Shown: positions 2,790 to 23,484 of the stretch, in pieces | Numbering within the stretch: the stretch's first letter is position 1 | Layout: each line of letters opens with the position of its first letter | Assembly: GCA_047973165.1 (NCBI GenBank) | Contig: JBKEBM010000065.1 | Coordinates: 1-41,300 of the forward strand | Direction of reading: 5' to 3' | DNA: 41,300 nt | Source: Chthoniobacterales bacterium | GTDB taxonomy: Bacteria; Verrucomicrobiota; Verrucomicrobiia; Chthoniobacterales; JBKEAD01 | Position numbers and translations under genes: made by a program | Notes under the pieces: generated by a model | Told to the model about the DNA's origin: nothing | What the model saw: the letters and a program-made list of their open reading frames with translations, nothing else | Database searches by the model: none

Positions 2790-2798
2790 TGTGGATAA
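2790..2798 (-). promoter_or_regulatory. Perfect DnaA-box 9-mer overlapping the GTG start
   Basis: TGTGGATAA is the reverse complement of TTATCCACA. Function is not established. Confidence 0.3.
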
Positions 2799-5700: not shown

Positions 5701-7509
5701 GAAGTAAGACCCTGGTTTTCTGTTGGAGGTAAGATCGGTGGAACGATGATGCTGACCATCGACGTAACGGATCAAAAACAGGCAGAGCAACACCTGATGC
5801 GTGTAAATGAGGACTTACAACTCTCCCAACGTATCGCCAGGCTCGGCGGATGGTCCTGGGATGTAGGAAGTGAAAAAATTATCTGTACTGAGGAATTATT
5901 TCGTATTTTTGGAATGAATCCGAATGGCCATTCTGTGGATAGGTCGAAGCTTAAAGAAATATTCGCTTACAAGGCTATACTCAAAATTTATAATTTTGTT
6001 AATTTAGCTATAGAGTTTGGTGAGAGAAATGTTTTTGAGGTAATTGGCAGAAAAACAAATTCTGAAAATACTCAAAGCAGTGAAGAAATTAATATATTAA
6101 TCCGACTTGAACCCGTTATCTCCGGGAATGGAAATATAAGGAGGCTTTACGGTTGCGTTCAGGACGTTAGTGAAATGCATCGTGCTCGTGAAGCTTTGGA
6201 AAAAAGTAATGAGAGGCTACAGGAAGCAATCGCTCAAACAAAAGAGCTGGCATCCAGGGACCCACTGACAAATCTGTATAACAGAGCTTTTCTCATGGCG
6301 GAGTTGGAACGCGCTTTACGTCGAGTTTCTAATAATTCTGTTGAACAAACCCTAATATATATAGATCTGGATAATTTTAAAACAGTAAATGACAGCCAGG
6401 GGCATAGTGCTGGTGATTCAATCCTCCAGGCAGTTTCGCGCTTACTTGAAAAGCACTTTAAACCCGAAGAAATTATAAGTCGTTTTGGCGGAGATGAATT
6501 TATAGGAATTTTTCAGCGTAACGAGGCTGAATCAATTAAAGCGGCCAAAACAATAATTTCAGACATTAAGACACACTTGTTTCAGGGAGCCGAGCGGCTC
6601 TATGCCATAGGTGCTTCTATTGGTGTCTGTCAATTAAAGGAAAATTTAACGGCTGAGGATGCTGTTTCCCGTGCAGATGCAGCATGTTACGCGGCAAAAC
6701 GACTAGGACGTAATCGAGTAAAAGCCTTTCGCCCAAATGCAACAGGAATGGAGCTTACTCTGGGTATTCAGGACTGGAGCCAGGTTCTGGGAGAAGCGAT
6801 TTATGACAAGCGCTTTGAAACCTGGTTTCAGCCTATCGTGCGCCTTGATACCGGAACACCCATATTTTTTGAAGTCTTACTTCGCCTTCGCGGGCAAAAC
6901 AAAGATATTATAGAACCATCGACTTTTATTCCTCCGGCGGAGCGAATGCAGTTAATGCCGGAGCTGGATTTTTATGTGATAGAACAATCAGCCCGCATAT
7001 TATTAAAATACCCGAACGTAAATCTGAGCATTAATTTAAGTGCTCAGTCACTGGCTATGTCTGACATGCTGAAATCTATCGACAGAATTTTTCTGCTTAA
7101 GTCTATCGATCCTTCAAGAGTCACTTGGGAGATAACTGAAACGGAAGCTCTTACTAATATTGATGAAGCTGCATATCAAACCCAGGCTTTGCATGAGAGG
7201 GGGTTTCTTATAGCTCTTGATGACTTTGGGTCCGGGTTTTCCTCCTTTGATTACCTTCGAAAACTACACATTGATTTTTTAAAAATTGATGGGAGTATTA
7301 TCAAAAACATCGCACAGGACTCTGCAAGTTATGCTTTTACGAAGGCTATTCATGATATAGGCAAATCCATGAATTTGCAGTGTATCGCCGAATATGTCGA
7401 AACAAGAAGAGTAGCTCAGATTTTGTCAGAAATTGGTATTCTTTATGGACAGGGCTTCCTTTTTTCTGCACCCCAACCTGACTTTAAGGCCAACATGGTT
7501 AATGTTTAG
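2791..7509 (+). CDS. Membrane-anchored multi-PAS diguanylate cyclase/phosphodiesterase (TM, periplasmic Cache-like sensor, TM, ~6 PAS/PAC, GGDEF, EAL)
   Basis: Two TM helices (~aa 13-35 and ~331-350). Repeated PAC ends (DVTREK, DITSRK, DITERQ, DVTDQK, DVSE). GGDEF motifs DPLTNLYNR, IDLDNFKTVND, SRFGGDEF. EAL motifs FEVLLRL, INLS, EITET, LDDFGSGFSS, KIDGS, EYVE, QGF. Confidence 0.95.
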   Translation: MDKPFKKPSRWYSIGLPAGIACLILGGILTLFILMEQWRGEQRYGADHLDSWIKALRAGMTYQEQIAASIAESTQDSSRLMRLLAEADKEKREGVETYLKEVYLPGLRVFEQNGLVAVNYFLPDGELLLQTYPIEPDERLSQTVMSMMSLTNSTLISQSAFVETLSFEGFRYVYPLFYDKAHVANLDIGFLPKTITDFLKRSIDGWSDFAVKATLITSKGKGRHIDSYEKSKFLPGYFILKKSEEQQGAQLKSIIGEGERGIKIQEDARKEFAGLLSLRSSGIASFKSGGFYWDVMVYPQTDITGAVVGQFFAINENQFLPTLYSGTRRNIVVAWACTFLAVLLFSMSYLQRQWLLSSQVEAVSQLEDIGKTIPGAVYQSQYWPETGQSLMKFISPGVIKLFFDSQEKFLKKPDLWMDYIIPDDRTKVKKSMALCAEELRPWAEEFRVKTSDGKTTWREVKAQPELQKDGSIIWNGFLAEADDRKAAEKALSESEQRFRDMAEAAGEYLWETDKRGCYILLSHGAGSVFGAPRELLINKKPEDFAPPESREWVTQIWKNIREKGEAFRELEFCIRRLSGELVWVRYSGTPFVDTDGNFAGFRGTGLDVTREKLAGELVKQTQERLVLATNAGNLGVWEFSFKENKFILDELCCQIFDLPRGVSKRSLEEILELFVPEDKEQMRETIQALLRGEERPNMDLLIKTPRGEERILSTSVSSAKNESGEVIRIAGVISDITSRKRIEEQVRATRDMLESVMDASSEVAIIATDNNGIITVFNSGAEKMLGYSASEVIGNETPLLFFKNEKSTGSVNSTDILLHAAQQKLPNDREWKYICKNKEIITVSQVITERWDDNGVREGFLCVALDITERQRTEYNLARSEKVLRAFVEHTPAAVAMFDTNLNYIAHSRQWLTDYNIFSTPSTDDPSHAVFPELGEYWKNIHKRSLAGEIVSQDEDKIEYSNGQKFWLSWEVRPWFSVGGKIGGTMMLTIDVTDQKQAEQHLMRVNEDLQLSQRIARLGGWSWDVGSEKIICTEELFRIFGMNPNGHSVDRSKLKEIFAYKAILKIYNFVNLAIEFGERNVFEVIGRKTNSENTQSSEEINILIRLEPVISGNGNIRRLYGCVQDVSEMHRAREALEKSNERLQEAIAQTKELASRDPLTNLYNRAFLMAELERALRRVSNNSVEQTLIYIDLDNFKTVNDSQGHSAGDSILQAVSRLLEKHFKPEEIISRFGGDEFIGIFQRNEAESIKAAKTIISDIKTHLFQGAERLYAIGASIGVCQLKENLTAEDAVSRADAACYAAKRLGRNRVKAFRPNATGMELTLGIQDWSQVLGEAIYDKRFETWFQPIVRLDTGTPIFFEVLLRLRGQNKDIIEPSTFIPPAERMQLMPELDFYVIEQSARILLKYPNVNLSINLSAQSLAMSDMLKSIDRIFLLKSIDPSRVTWEITETEALTNIDEAAYQTQALHERGFLIALDDFGSGFSSFDYLRKLHIDFLKIDGSIIKNIAQDSASYAFTKAIHDIGKSMNLQCIAEYVETRRVAQILSEIGILYGQGFLFSAPQPDFKANMVNV

Positions 7510-9300: not shown

Positions 9301-11130
9301 ATGAATCTTCCCTTAGCGTATTGCGATAGTCGTTTTTCCTGGCGTCGTCTTCCCACGCGAAAAGTTCAGCTTGGCGGGCTCTCCATCGGCGCAGAAAATC
9401 CCATCCGCATTCAGTCCATGCTGACCTGTGATACCATGGACACCACTGCCTGTGTCGAGCAGACAAAGGCACTCGTCGAAGTCGGTTGCGAAATCGTTCG
9501 CATCACCGCGCCCACAATTAAAGATGCTGCAAACCTGGAAAATATCGTCTCCGAGCTGCGTTCTCTCGGCTGCGACGTACCTGTTGTTGCCGACATTCAC
9601 TTCAAGCCCCAGGCTGCGATGGAAGCAGCTAAATGGGTTGAAAAAATACGCGTCAATCCAGGCAACTATGCGGACTCCAAAAAATTTGCTGTCCGTGAAT
9701 ACAGCAACGAAGAATACGGCGAAGAACTTCATCGCATAAAGGAACGCTTTTCCCCCCTCGTCAAATACTGTCGCGATAAAAAACTCGCCATGCGCATCGG
9801 AACCAACCACGGCTCTCTCAGCGACCGCATCATGAATCGCTACGGCGATACGCCACGCGGCATGGTGGAAAGCGCACTCGAATTTGCCCGCATCGCCCGG
9901 GAACTCGACTACCATAATTTTGTTTTTTCGATGAAAGCCTCGAATCCGAAAATTATGATCGAGGCTTACCGGCTGCTTGCAGCGCATTTGCGGCAACTCG
10001 GGCCGGACTGGAATTATCCTCTCCATCTCGGCGTCACGGAAGCAGGCGACGGAGAAGACGGACGTATAAAGAGTGCTGTCGGCATCGGCAGCCTGCTGGC
10101 CGACGGTCTTGGAGACACCATTCGCGTATCGCTCACCGAAGACAGCGTCCAGGAAATTCCCGTTGCTCAGGCACTGGCCGACCACATTTCAACAACCTTC
10201 GATCGTCCCGATTCTCACGCTCTCTCCACACCGAAAACAGAAGCCTGGTCACCTGATCCCTTCAGCTACACACGCCGCCCCGGCAAGGAAATTTCTTTTG
10301 ACAGCCAACTCGGCAAAACCCGGATCGGTGGCGAACAACTCGTGCAGGTTGCGATCCGCCCGAGCAGCTTTGAGCAGCTTGCACACAAGATCGACGCCCT
10401 TGGCGACTTCCGTCCCGACTTTGTCATTCCTGCGGATGAAGACCCGCACTATGTCGAAATCGATCCTCGCGACGACAATGAAATTTGCCGCGTCAACTCG
10501 CTGCCGGACCCATGTCTTATCAGCATCCCCGATGCGTGCGACGTGCCGGTCATCCATGCCTTTCGCCTCCTGGCAGCAAAACTTGATCCCCGGCATCCTC
10601 TCCTGCTCAAAGACACCTTTACTCCATCCCGCGACGATACGCGCCCTTTCCTGGAAAGCCTTCTCGAAGCCTCCGTCAACCTCGGTTCGCTGCTCTGCGA
10701 CGGTATCGGGGATGCCATTTTGGTGCAGGGTGAAAAAGCACCCGGCCAGGCATTGCGACTTTCTTTTAATATTCTCCAGGCCGTCGGTGCCCGTATTTTC
10801 AAGACAGATTACGTGGCGTGTCCAAGCTGCGGGCGCACGCTTTTTGACCTCCAAAGCACAACGGCACGAATCAAAGAAGCTACCGTCCACCTCAAAGGCG
10901 TCCGCATCGCCATCATGGGCTGCATCGTCAACGGACCGGGCGAAATGGCCGATGCCGATTTTGGCTACGTCGGTGGTGCTCCAGGAAAAGTAAACCTCTA
11001 CGTTGGTAAACAAGCCGTTAAATTTAACATCCCCGAAGCCGAAGCGGTAAGCCGCCTCATCGACCTGATCAAAGAACACGGACGCTGGGTTGACGCTCCG
11101 GGCAAACAATCACAAGCCAATCTCTCATGA
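9301..11130 (+). CDS. ispG: (E)-4-hydroxy-3-methylbut-2-enyl diphosphate synthase, long form with insertion domain
   Basis: PIRIQSM, VADIHF, RVNPGN, RIGTNHGSL, PLHLGVTEAG, GDTIRVSL, Fe-S ligands CPSCGR and MGCIVNGPGE. Confidence 0.97.
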   Translation: MNLPLAYCDSRFSWRRLPTRKVQLGGLSIGAENPIRIQSMLTCDTMDTTACVEQTKALVEVGCEIVRITAPTIKDAANLENIVSELRSLGCDVPVVADIHFKPQAAMEAAKWVEKIRVNPGNYADSKKFAVREYSNEEYGEELHRIKERFSPLVKYCRDKKLAMRIGTNHGSLSDRIMNRYGDTPRGMVESALEFARIARELDYHNFVFSMKASNPKIMIEAYRLLAAHLRQLGPDWNYPLHLGVTEAGDGEDGRIKSAVGIGSLLADGLGDTIRVSLTEDSVQEIPVAQALADHISTTFDRPDSHALSTPKTEAWSPDPFSYTRRPGKEISFDSQLGKTRIGGEQLVQVAIRPSSFEQLAHKIDALGDFRPDFVIPADEDPHYVEIDPRDDNEICRVNSLPDPCLISIPDACDVPVIHAFRLLAAKLDPRHPLLLKDTFTPSRDDTRPFLESLLEASVNLGSLLCDGIGDAILVQGEKAPGQALRLSFNILQAVGARIFKTDYVACPSCGRTLFDLQSTTARIKEATVHLKGVRIAIMGCIVNGPGEMADADFGYVGGAPGKVNLYVGKQAVKFNIPEAEAVSRLIDLIKEHGRWVDAPGKQSQANLS

Positions 11131-12200
11131 GCGAAACCCTCTCCCTGCACACTGCCTCCGCTGACTACCAGGTCCACATCGGTCCCGGCTTACTCGACCA
11201 GGCCGGGCGCATCTCCCGCGAACTTTCCAAAAGCAAACACTGCGCCGTAATCACTGACGAAAATGTTGCTCCACTTTATCTCGAACGTCTCCTCGCATCG
11301 CTTTACTCCAGCGGTTGGACCGCCGTCCCCATTACCGTCCCCGCGGGCGAAAAATCCAAGTCGCTGAACCACACGGAAATCTGCTGCGAGAAAATGATTG
11401 CTGCCGGGCTGGACCGCAAAGCACTCCTGTTTGCTCTGGGCGGCGGAGTTGTTGGTGATTTGGCAGGCTTCGTTGCCTCGATTTATTTTCGCGGTATTCC
11501 CTTTATTCAAATCCCAACCAGCGTTGTTGCTCAGGTCGATAGTTCGGTCGGAGGAAAAACCGGCGTCAATAGTCGACTTGGAAAAAATCTCATCGGTGCC
11601 TTTCAGCAACCCCTGGCCGTTATTGCCGATACCGATACTCTGAAAACGCTGCCGCCCCGCGAATTTTCTGAAGGCCTCGCCGAAGTTGTCAAACACGCCA
11701 TTATTCGCGACCGCTCCCTTCTTGACCTTATTGAAACAGCACCGACAGAAAATACGCCAACTCTCATCAGGCGTAATGTCCGCATCAAAGCCGACATCGT
11801 CGAAGAAGACGAAAAAGAAATCAGCGGCACGCGGGCACTTTTAAATTTCGGACACACCGTCGGCCACGCCATCGAAAACGCAGCCGGCTACGGACAATTC
11901 CTGCACGGAGAAGCCATCAGCCTCGGCATTCTCGCTGCTCTGAGACTTTCGGTAATCCACGCCAACCTGCCACAAAGCGAAGCAACTCTCATCGAAGAAA
12001 AACTTCACTCCCTCGGCCTACCCACAAAACTTCCTGAAAACCTGACAGACCAGAGCATTCTGACAGCGATGAAAACGGATAAAAAATTTCAGGAAGGCAA
12101 AATCCATTTTGTCCTGACCCAAAAGCTCGGCAGTGCTTTTGTCAGTAATAAAATTACCATGCAGGACATCCAAAAAAGCTTACAAACTCTGCACAGCTAA
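11127..12200 (+). CDS. aroB: 3-dehydroquinate synthase
   Basis: GEKSKS, ALGGGVVGDLAGF, AQVDSSVGGKTGVN, GKNLIGAF, LNFGHTVGHAIE, HGEAI, DKK. ATGA overlap with ispG. Confidence 0.97.
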   Translation: MSETLSLHTASADYQVHIGPGLLDQAGRISRELSKSKHCAVITDENVAPLYLERLLASLYSSGWTAVPITVPAGEKSKSLNHTEICCEKMIAAGLDRKALLFALGGGVVGDLAGFVASIYFRGIPFIQIPTSVVAQVDSSVGGKTGVNSRLGKNLIGAFQQPLAVIADTDTLKTLPPREFSEGLAEVVKHAIIRDRSLLDLIETAPTENTPTLIRRNVRIKADIVEEDEKEISGTRALLNFGHTVGHAIENAAGYGQFLHGEAISLGILAALRLSVIHANLPQSEATLIEEKLHSLGLPTKLPENLTDQSILTAMKTDKKFQEGKIHFVLTQKLGSAFVSNKITMQDIQKSLQTLHS

Positions 12201-12809: not shown

Positions 12810-12917
12810 AAATATACCATTCGCTTCTATGCCTCACTTTCAAATATGCAAAATACTCGTGCCTGACAAGACAACGAGTTGACGGCATCATATTTCCAAA
12901 GCAAACTGCCAGCGATC

Positions 12918-14099
12918 ATGTTATTTTTCCCCTTTGTGGCCGCGGCTTCGGCCTCTTTGTCTTCCGACTCCACGGCCTCCTGGACGCTTCTGATCGTTTA
13001 CTTCTGCCTGGCAATCGGAGTTTCATTTTTCTGTTCTGTCTGGGAGGCCGTCATCCTCAGCGTCACAAATCCTTACATTGCCAACCTGAAAAAAAAGCGG
13101 CCCAAAACCGGCAATCGACTGGACAATTTAAAAAAGCACATCAGCCGTCCCCTCTCCGCCATCCTCACACTCAATACCATCTCTCACACAGTCGGCGCCA
13201 TGGGAGTTGCCTCACAAGTCACAGCTCTCGGAGGTGGTAAATGGGATGCCGTCGCGGGTGCATTTATGACCATTGCCATTCTGATCGCATCAGAAATTAT
13301 CCCAAAAAATCTCGGGGCACGTCACTGGCGGGCATGGGCACCCTGGGTTGCTATCTGCCTCAGTTGGCTGACAAAATTAATGACTCCCATCATCCGAATC
13401 CTGGAGATTTTCAGCAAATCGCATCACAAAGAAGCCACCTTCAGCCGGGATGAACTAAAGGTAATGGCCGAGATCGGAACACGTCAGGGAAAGCTCCGCG
13501 AAGAAGAATCCCGCATCCTGGACAACCTCCTCCAGCTCCGCAGCATCTCCGTTCACGAAGTCATGACCCCCCGTGTGGTTGTCTTCGCTCTGCCTGAAAG
13601 CACGACCATTCAGGAATACATCGACAAGCACGACAGCTCACCTTTTTCGCGAATACCCATCTACTCCGAAAACCGTGATGACATTCATCACTTTGTCCTG
13701 AAACACGACATCCTCCTCGCCGCAGCACAAGGCAACTTTACGCTGACTTTAAAAGACCTGAAACGCAAACTGCTCGCAATTTCCGAAGTTACAAAACTAA
13801 CGAGTGCCTTCGAACACCTCGTCGCTAACCGAAGTCACATCTCTCTCGTGCTGGATGAATACGGTGGCATGTCCGGCCTCGTTACCATGGAAGACATCGT
13901 CGAAACTCTGCTTGGTCTGGAAATTATAGACGAAGCAGATACCCGGGAAGATATGCAGGAATTTGCACGAAATCTCTGGAAAGCCCGCGCCGCCAAAATG
14001 GGCCTGGAAATCGAAATCCTGTATCGGAAAAATAATATCCGACGCGCTGGTACCCGGTTTTTTTATTTTAAAAGCGTCCCACGCATTTCCATTGGCTGA
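12918..14099 (+). CDS. CNNM (DUF21) + CBS-pair membrane protein (hemolysin/CorB-like Mg2+/Co2+ transport family)
   Basis: SFFCSVWEAVILS, AILTLNTISHTVGA, SEIIPK, VMTPR, FSRIPIY, VLDEYGGMSGLVTMEDIVETLLGLEIIDE. ATG 12918 preferred over TTG 12879. The last ~28 codons are suspect. Confidence 0.92.
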   Translation: MLFFPFVAAASASLSSDSTASWTLLIVYFCLAIGVSFFCSVWEAVILSVTNPYIANLKKKRPKTGNRLDNLKKHISRPLSAILTLNTISHTVGAMGVASQVTALGGGKWDAVAGAFMTIAILIASEIIPKNLGARHWRAWAPWVAICLSWLTKLMTPIIRILEIFSKSHHKEATFSRDELKVMAEIGTRQGKLREEESRILDNLLQLRSISVHEVMTPRVVVFALPESTTIQEYIDKHDSSPFSRIPIYSENRDDIHHFVLKHDILLAAAQGNFTLTLKDLKRKLLAISEVTKLTSAFEHLVANRSHISLVLDEYGGMSGLVTMEDIVETLLGLEIIDEADTREDMQEFARNLWKARAAKMGLEIEILYRKNNIRRAGTRFFYFKSVPRISIG

Positions 14100-16339
14100 A
14101 AAAGAATCCAAACCCCTAAGTAAAAAAGCCCTCCGGCCAAAAGCAGCCAGGGAGTCACGACACGCCAAAATGATATATTTTTATTATTATCAATAAAACG
14201 GTTCGCAAATTTCCATACAAGCAGTGTCGAAGATACAAAGGCTGCATTTAACAGAATTAACTCAACAGGAAGGAGCCACTCCAAAAGCTGAATCGGTGGA
14301 CGCCAAACACTCTCCGCAGAACTCCCAATAAAACGCTGAACCACCGGAACAATCGTCCCCAGTCCTGTCAAAAAATGAAAACTAAAATGTGCCGCCCACA
14401 TTCCCAGTCCAAGCGGAACAAGTGTGTAAGCAAAACTCAGAACTTCCGTTTTAAATAAATCTGCCTTCCGGCCAAAAGCAGCCCACGCTGTCAGCCCAAG
14501 CAAAATTGCAGGAAGCAAAATACAACCTGCAAAAATAAAAGCAGCCACCAAGACCAGCCGCATCCTCTCCCCCAATCCGGCCATGACATAATCTTCCAAA
14601 GCAAGAACAGGAGAGATCATCGCAGCTGCATTCGTAAAGGCTGCAAAAACAATAACGATACAAAGCGCCAGAATATCTCTTCTCTGTAATAAACGAGCGA
14701 TGCCTGATTCTGAAATATTGTCAGCGACCTTTAAGAAATTCTTCGAAGGCGAGGTCGCCACCCAGCCCACGTTGTCGTGCGGACAGGCACGCACGCAATC
14801 CAGGCAAAACGTGCAGTCCATATTTCCCTGTTTCCTGGGTTGGAAAAGTGTGAGTTCGCAGCCGCGTGATTTTTCGTTTCCTTTGATGCAGTCAAAAGTC
14901 TTACAGGAGGCACAAACATCGTGACTGCGAGTCGTAATCTGAAAAGGAGATGCCAGCGATTGAACAAAATTAAAATGTCCGATCGGACAGACATATTTAC
15001 AAAAACTGGCTCCTTTAAAAATACTATCAATCAACGCAGACCCTGTAAAATAACCGATCACCAGCCATGCCGTGAGCTGAGGATGATCCCAAAGTGCAAA
15101 GGATTCGTAGGCCCACAGATAAAAAAGCAGGAGAAACAATACTAACCACTTCAGCCGCAGCCAGCGCGGCCAGACCAGACGTGGCGAAATTATTTTTCTC
15201 AGTCCGTCCCGAAATAAAATGAAAGGACAGCCGAAGCAAAATATATTTCCGACCACCAGCAAGGCGATAATCGAAAAGGCACGCCAGTAGGTCCAGGGCA
15301 ACACACCAGCCAGATTCAACGGACTGATCTGTGGACCAAACAACCCATCCACAACGAGTAAAACAGCAATTAAAAACAAGAGGAACTGAACACTGCGTCG
15401 AAAGGTAAGTGAGCTTAAAAGTGATCCAAAAAACGGAACCGCCAGCAAATCAAAAGGTCGGGCAGAGACCTTACCTTCGCCACGTAAAACGGTTTTCTTT
15501 TCAGGACGAAAAAACTCAGATGGTCTTACGCCTTTGTGCACAGAAAGTAACTTCATCGCAATAAAAGCCGCCGGAATAAAATAAGCCATCGATCCGGGAA
15601 CCCACATGATAACACCTGCTGCCGCCTGATCTGCCGCTGCGCTTACATCAAAAATACGCGGTGCCAACCGATAAGTCTCGTAGATCACTCCGTCATAAAA
15701 AGTGAGAAAGGCGGCGAGCAATGTGTTCTGCAAATCCGCCAAAAGCAGATACGGAATCATGCTCCAGCGTGGCCAGCTTTCCCGAAAAGGCCAAGGAGCA
15801 ACAACCGGCCACCAGAATAATACAGCCGTGAAAAAAAAGCAGGCATGCTCGAATTCATGCACGTTGTTCCGACTCAGCGCAGCGTCATAGAAGCTCGGAA
15901 TATGCCAGGCTATATTTGAGAACATAAAAATCCCCAGCGCAAAAGGTGGCCAGGTCAGAAAGCGTCCGATGCGTTTCAGAGGTAGCCAGTTCAGCAAAGG
16001 AGCCACCCCCGCGTGCGCCCAGTTTCGCGGAAGTCCGCGCAGCAGCGGCAGCAGAGGGCTTCCCAGTAAAAGCAGAGGTGGTGCCAGCATGGTCAGCAAA
16101 AGGTGCTGTGCCATGTGAGCCTGCAACAACAGCGAAGCAAAAGAATCCAGCGGCGAAGCCACCGCCGCATACAAAGTCAAAAGTCCACCGATAAAACAAA
16201 GCATCCTCCACGCCGGAAAACGCTGCGGCAAAATTCGTCTCAGCCTCCACCAGCCGCGAAAATAAAAAAACGCTGCAGGCAAAAGGAGCAGCAGCCAACC
16301 TGGATTCAACGACCAGGATGCAAAGGCAGCTTCACTCAC
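14063..16339 (-). CDS. ctaG: Fusion of caa3-type CtaG oxidase assembly factor (N-terminal) with a NapH/CcoG-like membrane 4Fe-4S polyferredoxin (C-terminal)
   Basis: CtaG motifs SPLD, AHMAQHLLL, WHIP, HEFEH, DQAAAGVIMWVPG. C-terminal motifs FCFGCP, FCKYVCP, CASCKTFDC, CTFCLDCVRACP among many TM helices. One uninterrupted 758-aa ORF. Confidence 0.88.
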   Translation of the reverse strand: MSEAAFASWSLNPGWLLLLLPAAFFYFRGWWRLRRILPQRFPAWRMLCFIGGLLTLYAAVASPLDSFASLLLQAHMAQHLLLTMLAPPLLLLGSPLLPLLRGLPRNWAHAGVAPLLNWLPLKRIGRFLTWPPFALGIFMFSNIAWHIPSFYDAALSRNNVHEFEHACFFFTAVLFWWPVVAPWPFRESWPRWSMIPYLLLADLQNTLLAAFLTFYDGVIYETYRLAPRIFDVSAAADQAAAGVIMWVPGSMAYFIPAAFIAMKLLSVHKGVRPSEFFRPEKKTVLRGEGKVSARPFDLLAVPFFGSLLSSLTFRRSVQFLLFLIAVLLVVDGLFGPQISPLNLAGVLPWTYWRAFSIIALLVVGNIFCFGCPFILFRDGLRKIISPRLVWPRWLRLKWLVLFLLLFYLWAYESFALWDHPQLTAWLVIGYFTGSALIDSIFKGASFCKYVCPIGHFNFVQSLASPFQITTRSHDVCASCKTFDCIKGNEKSRGCELTLFQPRKQGNMDCTFCLDCVRACPHDNVGWVATSPSKNFLKVADNISESGIARLLQRRDILALCIVIVFAAFTNAAAMISPVLALEDYVMAGLGERMRLVLVAAFIFAGCILLPAILLGLTAWAAFGRKADLFKTEVLSFAYTLVPLGLGMWAAHFSFHFLTGLGTIVPVVQRFIGSSAESVWRPPIQLLEWLLPVELILLNAAFVSSTLLVWKFANRFIDNNKNISFWRVVTPWLLLAGGLFYLGVWILFQPMEMRGTLLK

Positions 16340-16358: not shown

Positions 16359-17858
16359 CTATTCTGTCTCGGCAGATTTTTCCTCGGGAGGCTTTGCCGG
16401 AAAGGTCGAATCCAGTGCCTCGGGGACTGCCTCGGGGGTCAGTGAGGAGAGGTAGGCAACCACGGCAGACGTTTCTGCCGGAGTTAAATTGTGCCCGTAA
16501 GCCGGCATATTGCCACCGCCCTGCAGGAGCTGTCGTGTAAGCTGCGGCACGGTCAGCCGCGAGGCGACTCCCGCCAGATCGGGACCGCGTTTTCCGCCGA
16601 TATCGCCGATCGCATGGCAGTTGCGGCATTGTTTATACTGCACAACAAGGTTGCCGCGAAGCTCCAGTGGTGAACGGTCATCAATAAATTCTTCGGGAGT
16701 TATATCGCGACTCCAGGCTTCCATATGAGGAGACCAGGGTGAGGTTTTCCCGAGATAAGTCAGCGTCAGCAAAGCCAGCCAGACGAGAACCGTAACGATC
16801 ACCGCAAAGGGACGTCGCAGAGCACTTTTTTCACCAACATTGTCAATAAACGGCAGAGCAATGAGAATGACTCCTATGACCATCGGGCCGAGTAAAAGCA
16901 CAACCGTCTCCATGTAAGGCGGCAGCAAAGCAGCCACGGCAAAAATCCAAAGAAAGGGCAGGTCCGGACGCGGCGCTGTATTGATATCTAGCGGATTTGG
17001 CGGGCCGTTCGGACCGGTAGGACCAAAGTAAGCAGAGCAGGCGATGATGAGCAAAAGCACAAACGCACTGAAAATAAGATCCTTGCTGATGGCCTTCGGA
17101 ACAAATGGAACGCCCTCTTTCTCTATAATTCCTTCGTATTCCTCATCGTAAGTTTCTCGACGAATAGCCGTCCCGGGTTTTGGAAATTCGTTAATTCCTT
17201 TTTTCAGAACCAGGCGCAGGTGCAGACTGATCACCGCAATAATCAGGCCTGGCAATACGAATACATGCAGCGAGAAAAAACGACTCAGCGTATCCCCCGC
17301 GATGATGGGGCCGCCGAGCATCATGTTGACCAGGCTCTGTCCCATCACGGGTACGCGGCCCATGATCGAAGCACCAATGCCAAGCCCCCAGTAGGCGTCC
17401 TGATCGAAGCGCAGGATTTGTCCGGTGAAGGACATGCCCAACGTAAAGACCATGAGAAAAATTCCCGAAATCCAGGTCAGTTCGCGTGGATATTTATAAG
17501 CTCCGAAGAGGAAGACCTGTGTCATGTGAATGCACATGAAGAGAACCATGAAGTTCGATCCGTAGGAGTGCATCGCACGGATGAACCAGCCCAGGGGTTG
17601 CTGGAAGTTGAGGTAGAGGAGCGTGGTGTAAGCCTCCGCGCCGGACGGGACGTAAACAAGCGCGAGGAGAATTCCCGTGATGATCTGGATCGAGAAGCAC
17701 AGCAGCGTGGCGCTGCCAAAAACATACCACCAGGAGCCGGAGGTCTTTGGCACTTTGTGGCCGGCCGTGGCATCGAAAACTTTTTGCAGATACAGCCGCT
17801 TGTCGAGCCACTCAAAAGTGGCCTGTGCAGCTTCAGCAATGCGATTCGTAAAATTCAT
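16359..17858 (-). CDS. qcrB: Cytochrome b of a Rieske/cyt b complex, with subunit IV and a C-terminal monohaem cytochrome c in one polypeptide
   Basis: Haem b histidines in RAMHSYGSNFMVLFMCIH and FSLHVFVLPGLIIAVISLH, YKYPRELTWISG, Qo-site position PRPDLPF, CRNCH...GPDL...NMPAY. Confidence 0.93.
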   Translation of the reverse strand: MNFTNRIAEAAQATFEWLDKRLYLQKVFDATAGHKVPKTSGSWWYVFGSATLLCFSIQIITGILLALVYVPSGAEAYTTLLYLNFQQPLGWFIRAMHSYGSNFMVLFMCIHMTQVFLFGAYKYPRELTWISGIFLMVFTLGMSFTGQILRFDQDAYWGLGIGASIMGRVPVMGQSLVNMMLGGPIIAGDTLSRFFSLHVFVLPGLIIAVISLHLRLVLKKGINEFPKPGTAIRRETYDEEYEGIIEKEGVPFVPKAISKDLIFSAFVLLLIIACSAYFGPTGPNGPPNPLDINTAPRPDLPFLWIFAVAALLPPYMETVVLLLGPMVIGVILIALPFIDNVGEKSALRRPFAVIVTVLVWLALLTLTYLGKTSPWSPHMEAWSRDITPEEFIDDRSPLELRGNLVVQYKQCRNCHAIGDIGGKRGPDLAGVASRLTVPQLTRQLLQGGGNMPAYGHNLTPAETSAVVAYLSSLTPEAVPEALDSTFPAKPPEEKSAETE

Positions 17859-17861
17859 TTG

Positions 17862-18452
17862 TCAGGCCGGGGTGTCCGTGGATTCGGCTGTTCCGGGGTT
17901 GGAGAGCGTGGGCAGCATGCCGCCTTTGATGAAAAGGCTCCCGTTCTTGATTTTTGTTTCGTAAGCGAAGAGTCCGCGCGGTGGTGGGCCCGAGGCACGC
18001 GAACCATCCTGGTAATAAACGCCACCGTGGCAGGGACACATGAAGAGCTTGGATTCCTCGAACCAGCGGACCGGGCAGCCGAGATGGGCGCAGTTGATCG
18101 CAAAGACCTGGAAGTCGTTGTTTTCGATCCGGCGAACCCAGCAGGGGATATCTGCCGTCTCACCGTCCCAGGTACGTGAGTGGGGATTTTTAAAGGAGGC
18201 AAGGCGTGTTGTGTTTTGTGGAAATTTATCGACCTTTCCGAGATCGATCCACTCAAGATTTTTTTTCTCTGCGAAACTCGAAAACAAATATCCCACGATG
18301 GGAACACTCACCAGGGCGCCCGCCACGACATTCAGACCGACGCCGAGTTTCAGTAAAAAATTTCGGCGGTTTTGGTTGTCCTGGGTGTTGGCGTTGCTCT
18401 CAGGGTTTTGTTGTGCCGACTGGCAGCAGGGACGTTGCTTTTCCTCACTCAT
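17862..18452 (-). CDS. qcrA: Rieske 2Fe-2S subunit
   Basis: Tat motif NRRNFL plus TM, CAHLGC and CPCHGG boxes, SGPPPRGL. ATG 18452 overlaps the upstream stop; alternative start 18479. Confidence 0.95.
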   Translation of the reverse strand: MSEEKQRPCCQSAQQNPESNANTQDNQNRRNFLLKLGVGLNVVAGALVSVPIVGYLFSSFAEKKNLEWIDLGKVDKFPQNTTRLASFKNPHSRTWDGETADIPCWVRRIENNDFQVFAINCAHLGCPVRWFEESKLFMCPCHGGVYYQDGSRASGPPPRGLFAYETKIKNGSLFIKGGMLPTLSNPGTAESTDTPA

Positions 18453-19200
18453 AGATGGGCTGGTTGGTTCCGGTTTCATTTGTCGCAGGAAGCTCGGGAT
18501 TTAATTTGGCGGGATTTGAACTCGGGCGAAACGTATCGATCCAGGCGATAATATCGGCAATTTCTTTATCGGAAATGGCCTTTCCTTTGATGCGTTTTCC
18601 TAGTGGTTTCATACCAAGCTCGGGATGCCCCACGACGATGATGCCGCGGATATACTGATCCGTCGTGAGAGACAGATAGGCCGGATGGATAAAGGAATCC
18701 GGCTCCGGTTCATCCGAGTCGTCCTGTGCGTGGCACTTCGCGCAATACACCGTAAAAACTTTTTTCCCCTGCGCGACATCTCCCAGGGTCGGTGAGAAAT
18801 AGGGCGGAATATCCTCGGCTAGTTGCAGAGGCTCTCCCCGGCTTTTGATTCCTTTGACGAGTATGTCGATTTGCTCGTCGGTGAGGTTGCCGCCCTGAGG
18901 CTTTGAAAAAGCAGGCATCGGCGTGCCAGGGCGACCGTTTGAAATAACATCGTGCAGCACTTCTGCGGGAACCCATTTGGCGTAAGTCGGGTCCGCAAGC
19001 GGCATAGATGCGGCCAGGTTTGAGCCGTCGGAGTGGCAGGCTAGGCAGTTGATTTTAAAAAGGCTGTCGAAGTCGAGGTTTGCACTCGAAGGTTGCCAGA
19101 CGTCGGATTTTTTCGGATAGCCCGGCATCCAGTCACAGGAGGCGAGTTGAAAAATCAGACACCACAACATGAGGGAGGAGATTTTTATCAGTAATTTCAT
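18445..19200 (-). CDS. Dihaem cytochrome c lipoprotein
   Basis: Start ATG 19200 (ATGA overlap with upstream gene). Signal peptide with lipobox LASC. CLACH...GTPMPAF and CAKCH...LGM. Confidence 0.9.
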   Translation of the reverse strand: MKLLIKISSLMLWCLIFQLASCDWMPGYPKKSDVWQPSSANLDFDSLFKINCLACHSDGSNLAASMPLADPTYAKWVPAEVLHDVISNGRPGTPMPAFSKPQGGNLTDEQIDILVKGIKSRGEPLQLAEDIPPYFSPTLGDVAQGKKVFTVYCAKCHAQDDSDEPEPDSFIHPAYLSLTTDQYIRGIIVVGHPELGMKPLGKRIKGKAISDKEIADIIAWIDTFRPSSNPAKLNPELPATNETGTNQPIYE

Positions 19201-20063
19201 GCGTCCTCCTTTTCCGGTCCGTCTTGCGATTCGATACCGAGCTTCGCGGCGAGTGGCCAGCTTTGCATGGTCTCGACCCGTTCCGTTCTGTAAATGACAA
19301 ACCCGGCTACAAGTCCAAATGCAATCTGACACAAAACAAACCATAACCAATCAACGCGAGACGCAAGTGCCGGATCGATGACTCGCATGACGGAATGCAT
19401 CACTCCGGTCCATATCAGCGGAGCGACAACTCCGGCCCAAAACCATTTCAGTTTTCTCGGAAGCATCGGGAGCATCACGGTGTAGAGCAGGCCTACGATG
19501 ACCGACATGCACAGGTGAATCACACTGCCCACAATCAGCCCCGTCGAGCTGAACTCCGTCAGCGTTTTGAGGTCCGCCGTTGCCAGGGTTGGCACGCCCG
19601 CTGCCGCCAGCAAATTGATTGGATACCAAATGCTTCCCTGCGTCACCAGACCGTAAGCAATCGCCAGGGCAGCCATCACTGCAGCACCGACCAGACCGCC
19701 AATCACCCCAGCCGTGTAGGGGTGCATATCCACCGGCACACGCACGCGGTGTAGTTTTTCTCCGGCTTTCAAATGAGCGACTTTCTGAGGAGCCGCGACA
19801 ATCTCCACCGCCCGCTCCGAGGGTGGGCGCAGCGGCACCCGCTCATGCCGCGAATGCGGAAAGACCTGCCCGAAAAGACCACGCACGGAAACAAGGATAA
19901 AAATAAGTCCCACAATGCTGACAAGGGCATTCGTGACAAGCCCCGCGCTGGCAAGGGTGATCCCCAGAGCCAGCATCATCGGCCAGGCCGTCGAAGCCGG
20001 TAGATCAACTCCCTGCTCCGAAGCTGAGTCTGCGTGATGCGTTTTTTTTGATTCCTGCTGCAT
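19197..20063 (-). CDS. Multi-pass membrane protein; N-terminal helical hairpin resembles COX subunit III N-terminus / CtaF
   Basis: Likely start ATG 20063, 8 bp after the coxC stop. LPASTAWPMMLALG plus 2 TM, a soluble linker, then ~4 TM. Lies inside the oxidase operon. Confidence 0.8.
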   Translation of the reverse strand: MQQESKKTHHADSASEQGVDLPASTAWPMMLALGITLASAGLVTNALVSIVGLIFILVSVRGLFGQVFPHSRHERVPLRPPSERAVEIVAAPQKVAHLKAGEKLHRVRVPVDMHPYTAGVIGGLVGAAVMAALAIAYGLVTQGSIWYPINLLAAAGVPTLATADLKTLTEFSSTGLIVGSVIHLCMSVIVGLLYTVMLPMLPRKLKWFWAGVVAPLIWTGVMHSVMRVIDPALASRVDWLWFVLCQIAFGLVAGFVIYRTERVETMQSWPLAAKLGIESQDGPEKEDA

Positions 20064-20071
20064 AATATTTT

Positions 20072-20668
20072 TCAGACCCCTATGATGTAAACAAGTGTGA
20101 GCACGACGAGCCAGATGGCGTCTACGAAATGCCAATACCAGGAAACCATTTCAACATGCTCGTGGTGAGAGGCGTCGATTTTTCCGCGTAGCCCGGAGAT
20201 GAAAGTTACGGTCAGCAAAACGAGTCCGATGATCACATGAGAGGCGTGCAGACCGACGAGCGAATAGAAAGTTGTACCAAAAACATTTGTGCTGATCCAA
20301 AGGTGTTTTTCAAAAATGAGATGCCGCCACTCCAGCGCGGTGAAAGTGATAAAAGCGGCACCCAGCAAAATCGTAATTCCCCACCCCGCGAAGAAGACAG
20401 GGCGACTGTTTTTTTTCAGAGCACGCTCTGCCAGCAGGATCGTGAAACTGCTTGAAAACAGGCATATCGAAGCAAGCAGCGGCAGCTCCAGGACCTGACT
20501 CGGATACGGCGGATTGAGGCTTTTTCCCAGGTAAAAAACGTAGGCCACCACAAAAATCGTAAACAGCGAAGACTCTGCAATGATGAGCCCAAGCATCCCG
20601 ACTTTACGTTTGGACGGGAGTTTCTGCCTTTGCGGAATTTCATCTGAAGTGTGGGAGATCGTAGTCAT
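20072..20668 (-). CDS. ctaE: Cytochrome c oxidase subunit III (short 5-TM form)
   Basis: GMLGLIIAESSLF, LFSSSFT, FYSLVGLHASHV, WYWHFVDAIW. ATG 20668 overlaps the subunit I stop (ATGA). Confidence 0.95.
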   Translation of the reverse strand: MTTISHTSDEIPQRQKLPSKRKVGMLGLIIAESSLFTIFVVAYVFYLGKSLNPPYPSQVLELPLLASICLFSSSFTILLAERALKKNSRPVFFAGWGITILLGAAFITFTALEWRHLIFEKHLWISTNVFGTTFYSLVGLHASHVIIGLVLLTVTFISGLRGKIDASHHEHVEMVSWYWHFVDAIWLVVLTLVYIIGV

Positions 20669-22359
20669 TCGTATTTCCAATCCGGGTCGTCAGGGTGCTT
20701 CAAATCCCAAAGCGGGCGGCGACTGCGCACAACGGGTTCTTTTTCAAAATTGTAACTCGGCGGCGGAGAAGTGGTCGTCCATTCCAGGGTCCATGCGTCC
20801 CAGGGATCGTCGCCGGCTTTTTTCCCGCGCCAGTAAGAGTAAAGTAAGTTGAAGATAAAGAATAAAACTCCAAGAGCCTGAAAAATGACGCCGATACTCG
20901 AAATCAGATTCCATATCTCCCACCCGCGTCCGGCTTCGTAAGTAAATACGCGGCGCGGCATTCCCATGATACCAGCGATGTGCTGCGGTCCAAACGTGAG
21001 ATGAAAACCGATGAGAAAAAACCAAAAGTGCAGGTTGCCGAGACGGACGTTGAGCATCCTGCCAATCGCTTTGGGATACCAGTAATAGATCGTTGCAAAA
21101 ACCGTAAACAACAACCCGCCGATCAGAACATAATGAAAATGCGCTACGACAAAATAGGAATCCGTCAACTGCCAGTCAAAGGGAGCCATTGCGAGCATCA
21201 CACCCGTCAACCCCGCAATGAGAAACTGAAAAAGAAAGGCGATACAAAACATCATGGGCAGCTCAAAGCGAATCTTTCCGCCCCAGATTGTGCCCAGCCA
21301 GTTGAAAATTTTAATGCCCGTAGGAACCGCGACCAGCAAAGTCGAGATCACAAAAAAGGTATTAGACATCGAGCTCATCCCCACGGCAAACATATGGTGC
21401 GCCCAGACGCCGAGGCTGATAAACGCAATCATCACCGACGCCGCAACCATCACGGGATAACCAAATATCGGCTTCCGCGAAAATACCGGGATAATTTCCG
21501 AAGCCGCCGCAAAGCCGGGAAGTATTAAAATATAAACCTCGGGGTGCCCGAAAATCCAAAAGAAATGCTGCCACAGGACGGCGGAACCACCGGCCTGGGT
21601 ATTAAAGAAATTTGCTCCGAGAAAGCGATCCAGCAGCAGCATGATCTGGCAGGCCGACAGCGGAGGAAGTGCTATCAAAATCAGAAAAGCAACCACGACC
21701 ATCAGCCAGACAAAGACCGGCATTTTACCGAGGGTCATTCCGCGACAGCGAAGACTAAAGACGGTCGCCAGGACATTTACCGAAGCCGTGATGCTGCCCA
21801 CACCTGTCAAAAAAATACTCAGAATCCAGTAATCCGTGCTGTTTCCCCGCGAAAAAGCGCGCCCCGTGAGCGGTGCGTAAGCAAACCATCCCACGTCCGG
21901 CGCCGATCCCGCACCATAAAGTCCCTCCGAGCCAATGTAACTGAAATACAGCAAACACGCGCCAAAAAAGAAAATCCAGAAACCAAACGCATTCAGGCGC
22001 GGAAAGGCCATGTCCCGCGCACCAATCATCAGCGGAACCAGGTAATTCGCCATGCCTGTAATGATCGGCATCCCGACCAGAAAGACCATCGTCGTCCCGT
22101 GCATCGTAAAGAAGCGATTAAAAACATCGGGGGCCAGAAAGTCGTTTTCCGGGATCGCAAGCTGAATCCGCATCAGCCCAGCAAGCACTCCGGCCAGGGC
22201 AAAAAAGAGCAGGCCCGAACCGATATACATCAGACCAATTTTTTTATGATCTACCGTGGAGGCAATATCCGAAAACCAAGAGGAATACGCGGACGGAAGT
22301 ACCCCACCCGGCGCGGGCGAGGAGAGCGGTAAATCAGCAGTGGAAGTTCCGTTTGGCAT
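20665..22359 (-). CDS. ctaD: Cytochrome c oxidase subunit I, A1 type
   Basis: VDHKKIG, TMHGT, DMAFPRLN (D-channel), FGHPEVY, WAHHM, VPTGIK (K-channel), HFHYV, GMPRR. Confidence 0.98.
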   Translation of the reverse strand: MPNGTSTADLPLSSPAPGGVLPSAYSSWFSDIASTVDHKKIGLMYIGSGLLFFALAGVLAGLMRIQLAIPENDFLAPDVFNRFFTMHGTTMVFLVGMPIITGMANYLVPLMIGARDMAFPRLNAFGFWIFFFGACLLYFSYIGSEGLYGAGSAPDVGWFAYAPLTGRAFSRGNSTDYWILSIFLTGVGSITASVNVLATVFSLRCRGMTLGKMPVFVWLMVVVAFLILIALPPLSACQIMLLLDRFLGANFFNTQAGGSAVLWQHFFWIFGHPEVYILILPGFAAASEIIPVFSRKPIFGYPVMVAASVMIAFISLGVWAHHMFAVGMSSMSNTFFVISTLLVAVPTGIKIFNWLGTIWGGKIRFELPMMFCIAFLFQFLIAGLTGVMLAMAPFDWQLTDSYFVVAHFHYVLIGGLLFTVFATIYYWYPKAIGRMLNVRLGNLHFWFFLIGFHLTFGPQHIAGIMGMPRRVFTYEAGRGWEIWNLISSIGVIFQALGVLFFIFNLLYSYWRGKKAGDDPWDAWTLEWTTTSPPPSYNFEKEPVVRSRRPLWDLKHPDDPDWKYE

Positions 22360-22365
22360 AGCGGG

Positions 22366-23484
22366 TTATTTTAAAGTCATCAAAAAATCGGTGATGGAGT
22401 TCACCTGTTCGTCGCTCAGTTTCATATCCGGCATGAGCGCACCCTGTTTATGTTTCTGCGGGTCGTGCACCCAGTCACGAACATTTTCGCGAGTCAGCGG
22501 AAGAATACCCGCGCCGAGATTCATACGCGTGGCAAATTTCGAAAGGTCCGGCCCAAAAACACCCTCGGCAATCGTTCCACCAATTCGGTGACAATTGATG
22601 CAGGCCGTATCAAAAAACGCATCCTTCCCTGCGGCAACACCTTCGTCAAAAACCACGGGTGCTTTTTGCTCCTGCACCCATTTTTCAAAATCCTCCGGCG
22701 TGTGAACAACTACACGCAGAAGCATATTTGCATGCTGCGTGCCACAGTATTCCGCACAGTTTCCGAAATACACCCCGGTGCGCATCGGCTCGATCCAGGT
22801 GTAGTTATCGTGATTCGGAAACAGGTCCGTTTTTCCCGCGAGTTGTGGCATCCAGAAACTGTGAATCACATCCGCAGACTGCAATTTAAAATGCGTCAAC
22901 CGTCGCTTCTCCTCCGAACTTACCGGCACATGAATCTCGTTGGCCGTCACGATTCCAAGCTCGGGATAGTGCACCTCCCACCACCACTGATGCCCTACGA
23001 GGCGGATTTCGAGAGCGTCCTCGGGCATCGGAGCATTCTGAATCTCGCCAATACTGCGAGCAGCCACCAGGATCAAAACCAGCGTAATCAAAACAGGAAT
23101 AACCGTCCAGGCCATCTCAATCTGCGTCCCACCATAAACCTGCGCCGGCTCAGAATCATCGTCACCAGCAACACGGCGAAATTTAAACAAAGCATAAACC
23201 AGCAAACCGCTTACGATGACAAAAATCGCCGCCGTGATACCCAGGACAAAAATCGCCGCCTCGCGAATCGATTCCGCCGGAGTGGAAACCGGATCAAAAA
23301 TATTCGTAATAGGATACTCCGGCAAATCGGGCGTCGCTGCCGACAAATCCACGGTAAAAAACAAAGCAAATGCCAGGCAGCAAAACGCAACACTGCGAAT
23401 TGAAACCCCAGACAAAACGGCCTCTTCCCGGAGAGGAGACAAAAATCGGTAAAGCCGGAAGAACTTTGTAATCATACGAAACAC
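22366..23484 (-). CDS. ctaC: Cytochrome c oxidase subunit II with fused cytochrome c (caa3 type)
   Basis: IEMAWT, GHQWWW, DVIHSFW, CuA motif CAEYCGTQHANM, C-terminal CINCH...GPDL...ALMP. Start is either GTG 23484 or ATG 23475. Confidence 0.96.
   Translation of the reverse strand: MFRMITKFFRLYRFLSPLREEAVLSGVSIRSVAFCCLAFALFFTVDLSAATPDLPEYPITNIFDPVSTPAESIREAAIFVLGITAAIFVIVSGLLVYALFKFRRVAGDDDSEPAQVYGGTQIEMAWTVIPVLITLVLILVAARSIGEIQNAPMPEDALEIRLVGHQWWWEVHYPELGIVTANEIHVPVSSEEKRRLTHFKLQSADVIHSFWMPQLAGKTDLFPNHDNYTWIEPMRTGVYFGNCAEYCGTQHANMLLRVVVHTPEDFEKWVQEQKAPVVFDEGVAAGKDAFFDTACINCHRIGGTIAEGVFGPDLSKFATRMNLGAGILPLTRENVRDWVHDPQKHKQGALMPDMKLSDEQVNSITDFLMTLK

Follow-up and report, generated by a model that had tools for sequence, protein, structure and literature searches.

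The last gene of a combined caa3-type oxidase and bc-complex operon in a Chthoniobacterales bacterium encodes one membrane protein of two units with 16 predicted transmembrane helices, in which a Bacillus-type CtaG is joined to a half that profile comparison relates distantly to the NapH/NosR/YccM group of membrane polyferredoxins, to which CcoG is also said to belong. The window analysed here is the whole stretch of 41,300 nucleotides (GenBank assembly GCA_047973165.1, contig JBKEBM010000065.1, positions 1 to 41,300 of the forward strand), and the gene lies at 14063..16339 on the minus strand. The reading that we favour is that the C-terminal half is a copper-redox module dedicated to the biogenesis of A-type oxidases and working like CcoG, and its probability is put at roughly 0.5.

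The gene is a single uninterrupted open reading frame (ORF) with a GTG start, and its length of 758 amino acids is that given in the original prediction, which was made from the letters of this stretch and did not give the strand. The start codon lies 19 nucleotides past the stop codon of the cytochrome b gene, and the 3' end shares 37 nucleotides with a convergent CNNM/CBS gene (12879-14099, plus strand). All motifs listed earlier were found again in the translation: AHMAQH (residues 74-79), WH (145-146), HEFEH (161-165) and DQAAAGVIMW (237-246) in the N-terminal half, and CFGCP (368-372, of the form CxxCP), CKYVCP (447-452, CxxxCP), CASCKTFDC...GC (476-494), CTFCLDCVRACP (509-520), WAAHFSFH (648-655) and QPMEMRG (748-754) in the C-terminal half. 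An ORF of this length with these motifs is far beyond chance expectation.

The N-terminal half had been taken for a CtaG domain with histidine and methionine motifs, and this assignment is borne out. The Pfam family PF09678 (Caa3_CtaG) matches residues 25-264 (15548..16267, minus strand), a domain of seven transmembrane helices, with 189.3 bits against a gathering cut-off of 27.7 (E 9.6e-56, profile positions 2-234 of 237). With the NCBIfam equivalog TIGR02737 the same half scores 68.5 bits, below the cut-off of 279.35. In 35 fused homologues the residues H75, M76, Q78, H79, H146, H161, H165, D237, Q238, M245 and W246 do not vary, and the periplasmic leaflet is their predicted place. An active caa3 oxidase requires CtaG, whose mechanism and copper centre are described as obscure, and in Bacillus subtilis CtaG influences copper intoxication (PMC13344008). 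For the half studied here, the position in the operon is what supports such a requirement. Firmicutes are said to be without a CcoG homologue (PMC13344008), and the function of Bacillus-type CtaG was called poorly understood in papers of 2019 and 2026.

A linker rich in lysine and arginine (residues 266-310, 15410..15544; a mean of 9.0 such residues in the 35 homologues), predicted to be cytoplasmic, leads into the C-terminal half, all parts of which are encoded on the minus strand like the rest of the gene. This half starts with a NapH/YccM-like core of four transmembrane helices (residues 311-440, 15020..15409), supported by profile alignment, by NCBIfam matches below cut-off and by invariant positions; both structure models place the helices at about 311-334, 352-381, 398-413 and 420-440, and hydropathy agrees. 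The inner half of the second core helix carries a CX2CP motif (C368, C371, P372; nucleotides 15224-15238). A cysteine-rich domain, predicted to be cytoplasmic, follows at residues 441-553 (14681..15019), with a CX3CP motif (C447, C451, P452; nucleotides 14984-15001) and eight putative cluster cysteines (nucleotides 14780-14914), of which C509, C512, C515 and C519 form a canonical CxxCxxCxxxCP motif, and C476, C479, C484 and C494 a non-canonical CxxCxxxxC...C motif with an insert of variable length. The last part is a tail of five transmembrane helices (residues 554-758, 14066..14680), which is not found in YccM. It contains the invariant residues N570, A571 and M574 (M574 at nucleotides 14618-14620), H651 and H655 within AHxxFH (nucleotides 14375-14392), and P749, M750 and M752 within QPMEMRG, a PMxM motif (nucleotides 14078-14098); the periplasmic face is the predicted location of every one of them.

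Conservation of these positions is complete. All 12 cysteines of the C-terminal half are invariant in the 35 fused homologues and again in an alignment of 26 fused and unfused homologues, which settles the conservation of the cysteine motifs in favour of the original prediction, and both Cys-Pro motifs are among the invariant positions, the first aligning to the CX3CP of YccM with a gap of one residue. The tail residues M574, H651, H655, P749, M750 and M752 are likewise invariant in both sets. Haem binding by the tail was considered and rejected because H651 and H655, the sole invariant histidines in it, sit on the same helix with a spacing of four residues.

The C-terminal half reached no curated cut-off of Pfam or NCBIfam, and in the profile scan proposed along with the original prediction, Caa3_CtaG matched strongly whereas the Fer4 families remained below threshold (best E 0.03). 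The best NCBIfam model was NapH/MauN (TIGR02163; 31-32 bits, E 7.5e-8, cut-off 213.05), a model whose cut-off Escherichia coli YccM also misses with 90 bits, and NosR and then NapH were the next best. A family profile of 26 members aligned to YccM in hhalign over 200 columns with 97.1% probability (E 5.6e-11), and the aligned columns include the two Cys-Pro and the two ferredoxin motifs along with the four-helix core. The CcoG model TIGR02745 gave 12.5 bits (E 0.052, cut-off 316.7), and Pfam found no match to a CcoG-type periplasmic immunoglobulin-like domain in this half. Of the earlier description as a NapH/CcoG-like 4Fe-4S membrane protein, homology to NapH and YccM thus stands; membership in the CcoG family does not, and the half is not a CcoG. 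Taken together, the profile comparisons place it as a distinct branch of the NapH/NosR/YccM/CcoG superfamily for which Pfam and NCBIfam have no model. YccM itself was described as a CcoG homologue that has no immunoglobulin-like domain (PMC7558416), and the module shared by NapH, NosR and RdhC as consisting of four membrane segments and a pair of CX3CP motifs, to which NapH and NosR add two 4Fe-4S motifs (PMC5928378).

In structure prediction, the C-terminal half (core and tail) forms one compact unit, with a predicted local distance difference test score (pLDDT) of 85.8 and a predicted template modelling score (pTM) of 0.88, and the full-length model has a pLDDT of 77.8, falling below 50 in linker residues 270-291. 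Foldseek searches of the Protein Data Bank (PDB) with the full-length and the C-half models gave no match at E <= 0.001 in either case, and a sequence search of PDB chains gave none at E <= 1. A complex prediction of the CtaG half, the C-terminal half and two 4Fe-4S clusters had a score of 0.00 and is evidence neither way. In the 35 homologues, loops between the modelled helices carry a mean of 22.2 lysines and arginines where predicted inside and 7.3 where predicted outside, the iron-sulfur domain excluded, and this bias would place the clusters on the cytoplasmic side, with the C-terminal PMxM on the outside. The predicted topology thus begins with the CtaG N-terminus outside, continues with seven helices and a cytoplasmic linker, and places the two Cys-Pro motifs, like the iron-sulfur domain, at the cytoplasmic face. 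PMxM, H651/H655 and M574, together with the histidine and methionine cluster of CtaG, would face the periplasm, and the C-terminal half would have one conserved centre on each side of the membrane.

Fused forms of this kind are widespread. A search for proteins of similar length gave 3245 matches at E <= 0.001 among 8000 scored candidates, and the best 120 of these 3245 are full-length (733-813 amino acids, 97-100% query coverage) with 48-57% identity, apart from one copy among them that is 100% identical. Several matches carry automatic names of the Joint Genome Institute (JGI) such as "CtaG/ferredoxin" or "CtaG/polyferredoxin", in line with the earlier expectation that such fusions might already be in databases. 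A description of a CtaG/iron-sulfur fusion was not found in the literature, though the homologue survey of the original CcoG paper may mention such fusions. The novelty lies in the tail and the altered first motif of a NapH/CcoG-superfamily protein, in CtaG as its partner and in an A-type oxidase as its presumed client. The C-terminal half alone matched 1842 cluster representatives at E <= 0.001, 314 of them at E <= 1e-30. Among the best 150 representatives, 50 have CtaG N-terminal to the module, another 20 are complete but without CtaG, and 80 are fragments that were assigned to no class; 17 of the 150 were scanned for extra domains, and none beyond CtaG and weak Fer4 matches was found.

Of 599 candidate stretches in reference genomes, 506 were found to encode a relative. 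The best 80 of the 506 were analysed as loci, so that unfused forms are under-sampled. An intact single ORF in the order CtaG to module is present in 72 of the 80 loci (Verrucomicrobiota, Acidobacteriota and Planctomycetota), and two further loci, L001 and L059, have the same order with a frameshift. These 74 N-to-C loci divide into 53 from Verrucomicrobiota, 10 from Acidobacteriota and 11 from Planctomycetota. One locus (L079, Longimicrobiales) has the module followed by a separate ctaG, i.e. the reverse order, with an overlap of 8 nucleotides, and five loci have the module with no ctaG within the stretch examined. The original prediction had considered that the halves might be separate, unlinked genes in relatives; separation does occur in these five, but there the module has genes for other oxidase copper chaperones linked to it. 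The closest of the 80 loci is L001 (10001-12290; 75% identity, from a Chthoniobacterales metagenome-assembled genome), in which the frameshift lies near 11218-11223 within the fusion gene. In the NCBI annotation the piece downstream of it is a hypothetical protein of its own, with 251 amino acids (P0154); either the assembly is in error here or the gene is a pseudogene.

A quick maximum-likelihood tree was calculated from 86 C-terminal halves, with a Deinococcus protein as outgroup. Five loci were omitted: L001 and L059 for their frameshifts, L008 and L014 because contig ends truncate them, and L053 because its match was partial. Seventy fused sequences fall in one clade together with one unfused sequence, supported by a value of 99 in the Shimodaira-Hasegawa-like approximate likelihood ratio test. 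L079 is sister to this clade (support 88), and the unfused forms make up a basal grade. The label fused or unfused changes twice on the tree, whose root is uncertain because the outgroup branch is long. This pattern fits a single fusion event that followed gene adjacency.

The strongest evidence on function comes from the genes around the unfused module. In four of the five loci that have the module only, a gene for a YtkA/CtaK-like copper chaperone lies directly 5' of it, with Sco nearby in two. The Chloroflexia locus (L068) has CopC-CopD, CopC, Sco1, two PCuAC genes and a YtkA-like gene before the module, the Gemmatimonadales locus (L080) Sco1 and a YtkA-like gene, the Thermoanaerobaculia locus (L067) a YtkA-like gene, and the Bacteroidota locus (L072) a YtkA-like fragment at the contig edge. 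In the fifth, from Caldilineaceae (L078), the module is divergent from coxB-coxA-ctaA/ctaB, and a YtkA-like ORF below threshold lies two genes downstream. In L079 an ORF with a Sco1 domain precedes the module and ctaG follows it. CtaK/YtkA was described as a lipoprotein that works with Sco in CuA assembly (PMC13344008). Unfused modules lie near genes for YtkA/CtaK-like proteins, Sco, PCuAC and CopCD as well as ctaG, and this context lends independent support to a role in copper handling and oxidase assembly. The L079 module (9941-11635, plus strand) ends in a long extension rich in methionine, glutamate and histidine beyond PMxMRG. Methionine-rich tails of this kind are typical of periplasmic Cu(I) sites, and the extension presumably resembles such a Cu(I)-binding tail.

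The same neighbourhoods might point to thiol chemistry. In such a pathway, for which ferredoxin:thioredoxin reductase and heterodisulfide reductase would be analogies, the iron-sulfur clusters would reduce disulfides formed by the protein's own CX2CP and CX3CP motifs and thereby keep Sco or the CuA cysteines of subunit II reduced for copper insertion. The Sco1 genes near the unfused module in L068 and L080, the Sco1-domain ORF upstream of it in L079 and the invariance of the paired-cysteine motifs would agree with this, and the CX3CP motifs of NosR were argued to be more likely disulfides than a cluster (PMC5928378). However, the Cys-Pro motifs are predicted on the cytoplasmic side, whereas Sco and CuA are periplasmic; conserved cysteines are absent from the predicted periplasmic face, where the invariant histidines and methionines are copper ligands and not thiol-exchange residues; and no thioredoxin-like domain was found with Pfam. 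A thiol-reductant pathway is therefore judged distinctly unlikely.

In the window, the fusion gene closes an operon in which the genes for a caa3-type oxidase and for a bc-type complex are combined (16359-23484, minus strand). Assigned by Pfam and NCBIfam, these are coxB with a cytochrome c domain (22366-23484), coxA (20665-22359; A-type, TIGR02891 above cut-off), coxC (20072-20680), an ORF resembling subunit IV and DUF6789 (19197-20135), a dihaem cytochrome c (18445-19350), a Rieske protein (17862-18479) and a cytochrome b fused to cytochrome c (16359-17858), all on the minus strand. The cbb3 association of CcoG (ccoNOQP, ccoGHIS) was not found here, the operon being one of an A-type oxidase (CoxA) and bc subunits. 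A cytochrome b gene lies directly 5' of the fusion in 49 of the 74 N-to-C loci, from three phyla, with cox genes beyond it in the same order where the locus has enough upstream DNA, and for this reason the conserved linkage suggests an obligate bc-oxidase supercomplex. In total, 50 of the 74 loci are joined to bc/caa3 genes (29 from Verrucomicrobiota, 10 from Acidobacteriota and 11 from Planctomycetota).

Such linkage might also mean that the C-terminal half is a respiratory electron-transfer subunit of the NapH type, acting as a quinol dehydrogenase or as a redox link to the bc complex or the oxidase, with the fusion to CtaG as incidental packing at the operon end. NapH/MauN, NosR and NapH are indeed the top profile matches, the gene stands right after cytochrome b in most N-to-C loci, and NapH's membrane segments have been suggested to oxidise quinol (PMC5928378). 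On the other hand, the fusion is intact away from the operon, with no cytochrome b at 18 loci that have at least 3 kilobases (kb) of upstream DNA, and unrelated neighbours in the six that were examined; unfused copies adjoin copper chaperones and neither bc genes nor a NapG-like partner; and the fused sequences stay together in one well-supported clade with few changes of state, which speaks for selection acting on the fusion and against packing by chance. The subunit explanation is judged very unlikely.

According to the original prediction, the operon has no sco or cox11, and this holds across the window. Neither Sco and Cox11 nor PCuAC and YtkA had a Pfam match among the scanned ORFs, which comprised those of at least 150 amino acids judged to be coding and four shorter ones, and tblastn with Sco, PCuAC, YtkA and CopCD proteins of other phyla gave no match to the window, a weak test as the queries are distant. 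That CtaG is joined to a redox module in a conserved fusion argues that copper insertion through CtaG requires an electron supply of its own.

Under the copper-redox reading, the two units of the fusion would cooperate in loading copper into the caa3-type oxidase that is encoded upstream. The first unit is a Bacillus-type CtaG, with putative histidine, methionine and aspartate ligands in the periplasmic leaflet. In the second, two putative [4Fe-4S] clusters on the cytoplasmic side would accept electrons from a presumed donor and hand them on to the cysteine pairs of CX2CP and CX3CP at the inner face of the membrane, where Cu(II) would be reduced to Cu(I) as reported for CcoG. The five-helix tail, with a periplasm-facing His2/Met3 site (M574, H651, H655, M750 and M752), might connect this redox site with the periplasmic side, where Cu(I) would be exchanged with a chaperone. 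This chaperone would be CtaG where the two are fused and a YtkA/CtaK-like lipoprotein where they are not. The analysis itself establishes the domain identities, the conservation, the distribution of fused and split forms, the gene neighbourhoods and the homology to YccM, whereas cluster binding, topology, copper as the substrate, the electron donor, reduction of Cu(II), hand-over of Cu(I) to CtaG and the direction of copper flow are what we infer. Whether the module is, in addition, a new trans-membrane copper reductase and Cu(I) conduit, leading from the clusters through the Cys-Pro pairs and the His2/Met3 site to CtaG or YtkA, is more doubtful. If this were true, such a conduit would supply periplasmic Cu(I) for CuA and CuB assembly without an ATPase of the CopA/CcoI type, would be a bacterial, iron-sulfur-based counterpart of the eukaryotic Fre/STEAP reductases, and would give a first biochemical handle on the action of Bacillus-type CtaG.

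A different use of the same sites would be copper transport, with CtaG and the five-helix tail as import and export paths and with the iron-sulfur domain gating them as a sensor of redox state or oxygen instead of reducing copper. CtaG was described in papers as distantly related to CopD, the conserved histidine and methionine sites of CtaG and of the tail are at the predicted periplasmic face, and CopC-CopD belongs to the L068 cluster; the effect of CtaG on copper intoxication in B. subtilis and a CtaG-CopD fusion in Corynebacterium glutamicum point the same way (PMC13344008). However, eight cluster cysteines together with two Cys-Pro motifs typify relatives that transfer electrons, and a pure sensor would not need both, nor is there evidence of transport for CtaG or the tail. 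A gated transporter thus appears unlikely.

Several findings weigh against the copper-redox reading. Scores below all curated cut-offs (32 against 213 bits for NapH/MauN, 12.5 against 316.7 for CcoG) make a transfer of function from CcoG a long-range one, and the profile scores put the C-terminal half nearer to the electron-transfer proteins NapH/MauN and NosR than to CcoG. The first cysteine motif is CX2CP, whereas NapH, NosR and RdhC have CX3CP (PMC5928378). The full-length model places CtaG relative to the C-terminal half without confidence (pTM 0.58), and neither model resembles any solved structure in the PDB. Neighbourhood evidence for the unfused module comes from six loci only. Finally, 24 of the 74 N-to-C loci, all from Verrucomicrobiota, have no cytochrome b before the fusion; 18 of the 24 have at least 3 kb of upstream DNA, and six of six examined have unrelated housekeeping neighbours.

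Relatives of the C-terminal half were also seen in other settings. A plasmid protein of 452 amino acids from Deinococcus ficus shares the entire half including the tail (E 6e-42); on plasmid pDFI1 (L081, 5934-8215) this homologue overlaps the end of a hypothetical gene of 308 amino acids with no Pfam match, and genes with DUF3105 and DUF305 are nearby. In a structure atlas, residues 540-758 resemble a cluster of hypothetical proteins of 249 amino acids (1133 members, mostly Chloroflexota; TM 0.81/0.72), and Pseudomonadota clusters of 475-505 amino acids resemble the tail with TM values of about 0.7, one of them automatically named 'fenitrothion hydrolase family'. Shorter proteins gave 50 matches to the tail, mostly from short contigs; all five that were examined begin inside the domain, one of them being the product of the L001 frameshift. 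The five-helix tail may be an independent module. Proteins of cyanobacterial plasmids, H1 and H2, whose annotations name regulators of nitrogen assimilation or cyclic-nucleotide-binding ones, are similar to the core and to some of the tail (residues 42-388 of the C-terminal half, which as a query has 468 residues; E about 1e-15 to 1e-17), which points to further fusions of the membrane module.

Other observations concern the rest of the window. The ORF of 312 amino acids at 19197-20135 (minus strand) has weak matches to PF12270 (actinobacterial oxidase subunit IV) and to DUF6789, both just below cut-off. It shares about 150 nucleotides with the ORF at 18445-19350, and the start of the dihaem cytochrome c is therefore probably further downstream. 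A signalling protein of 1572 amino acids with multiple PAS domains and with GGDEF and EAL domains is encoded at 2791-7509 (plus strand), and a long-form IspG/GcpE of 609 amino acids, in which an insert divides the Pfam domain into two stretches, at 9301-11130 (plus strand).

To our knowledge, dedicated copper reduction has so far been reported for cbb3 oxidases only, via CcoG. A CcoG-like role of the fused module would extend it to the A-type oxidases of Verrucomicrobiota, Acidobacteriota, Planctomycetota, Chloroflexota and Gemmatimonadota. The sequences define a protein family that stays under all Pfam and NCBIfam cut-offs, and CX2CP, CX3CP, M574, AHxxFH and PMxM are clear targets for mutagenesis.

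Among known systems, YccM can be aligned with the C-terminal half throughout the core and the cysteine motifs, but its first motif is CX3CP, both of its ferredoxin motifs are canonical, and it has neither a five-helix tail nor CtaG. NapH/MauN and the C-terminal part of NosR, the best profile matches, resemble it in having four membrane segments, a pair of Cys-Pro motifs and two motifs for 4Fe-4S clusters, those of the fusion being putative, and NosR also serves a copper enzyme, N2O reductase; the fusion differs from them in its CX2CP motif and in having no NapG-type partner, no flavin mononucleotide-binding domain and no nap or nos context. CcoG, encoded in the cbb3 clusters of Rhodobacter capsulatus, was reported to be a membrane protein with two [4Fe-4S] clusters and two copper sites that reduces Cu(II) (PMC7558416). 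CcoG/FixG and the fusion have in common two [4Fe-4S] motifs (putative in the fusion), two further cysteine sites and a link to haem-copper oxidase biogenesis, with YccM connecting them within the superfamily. However, CcoG ends in a periplasmic immunoglobulin-like domain and serves C-type oxidases from ccoGHIS clusters, whereas the fusion ends in a five-helix histidine/methionine tail, belongs to an A-type caa3 operon and is joined to CtaG. B. subtilis CtaG is of the same Pfam family as the N-terminal half, which likewise ends a caa3-type oxidase operon, but it is a stand-alone protein, and the fused half misses the NCBIfam equivalog cut-off. For the joining of CtaG to a copper-handling module, the CtaG fused to a CopD domain in C. 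glutamicum (PMC13344008) is a precedent, although CopD is not a redox protein. For the joining of a copper chaperone to an iron-sulfur domain, the precedent is CopZ of Archaeoglobus fulgidus, in which the iron-sulfur domain reduces Cu(II) (PMC7558416), in a protein that is soluble and cytosolic and has a different partner domain.

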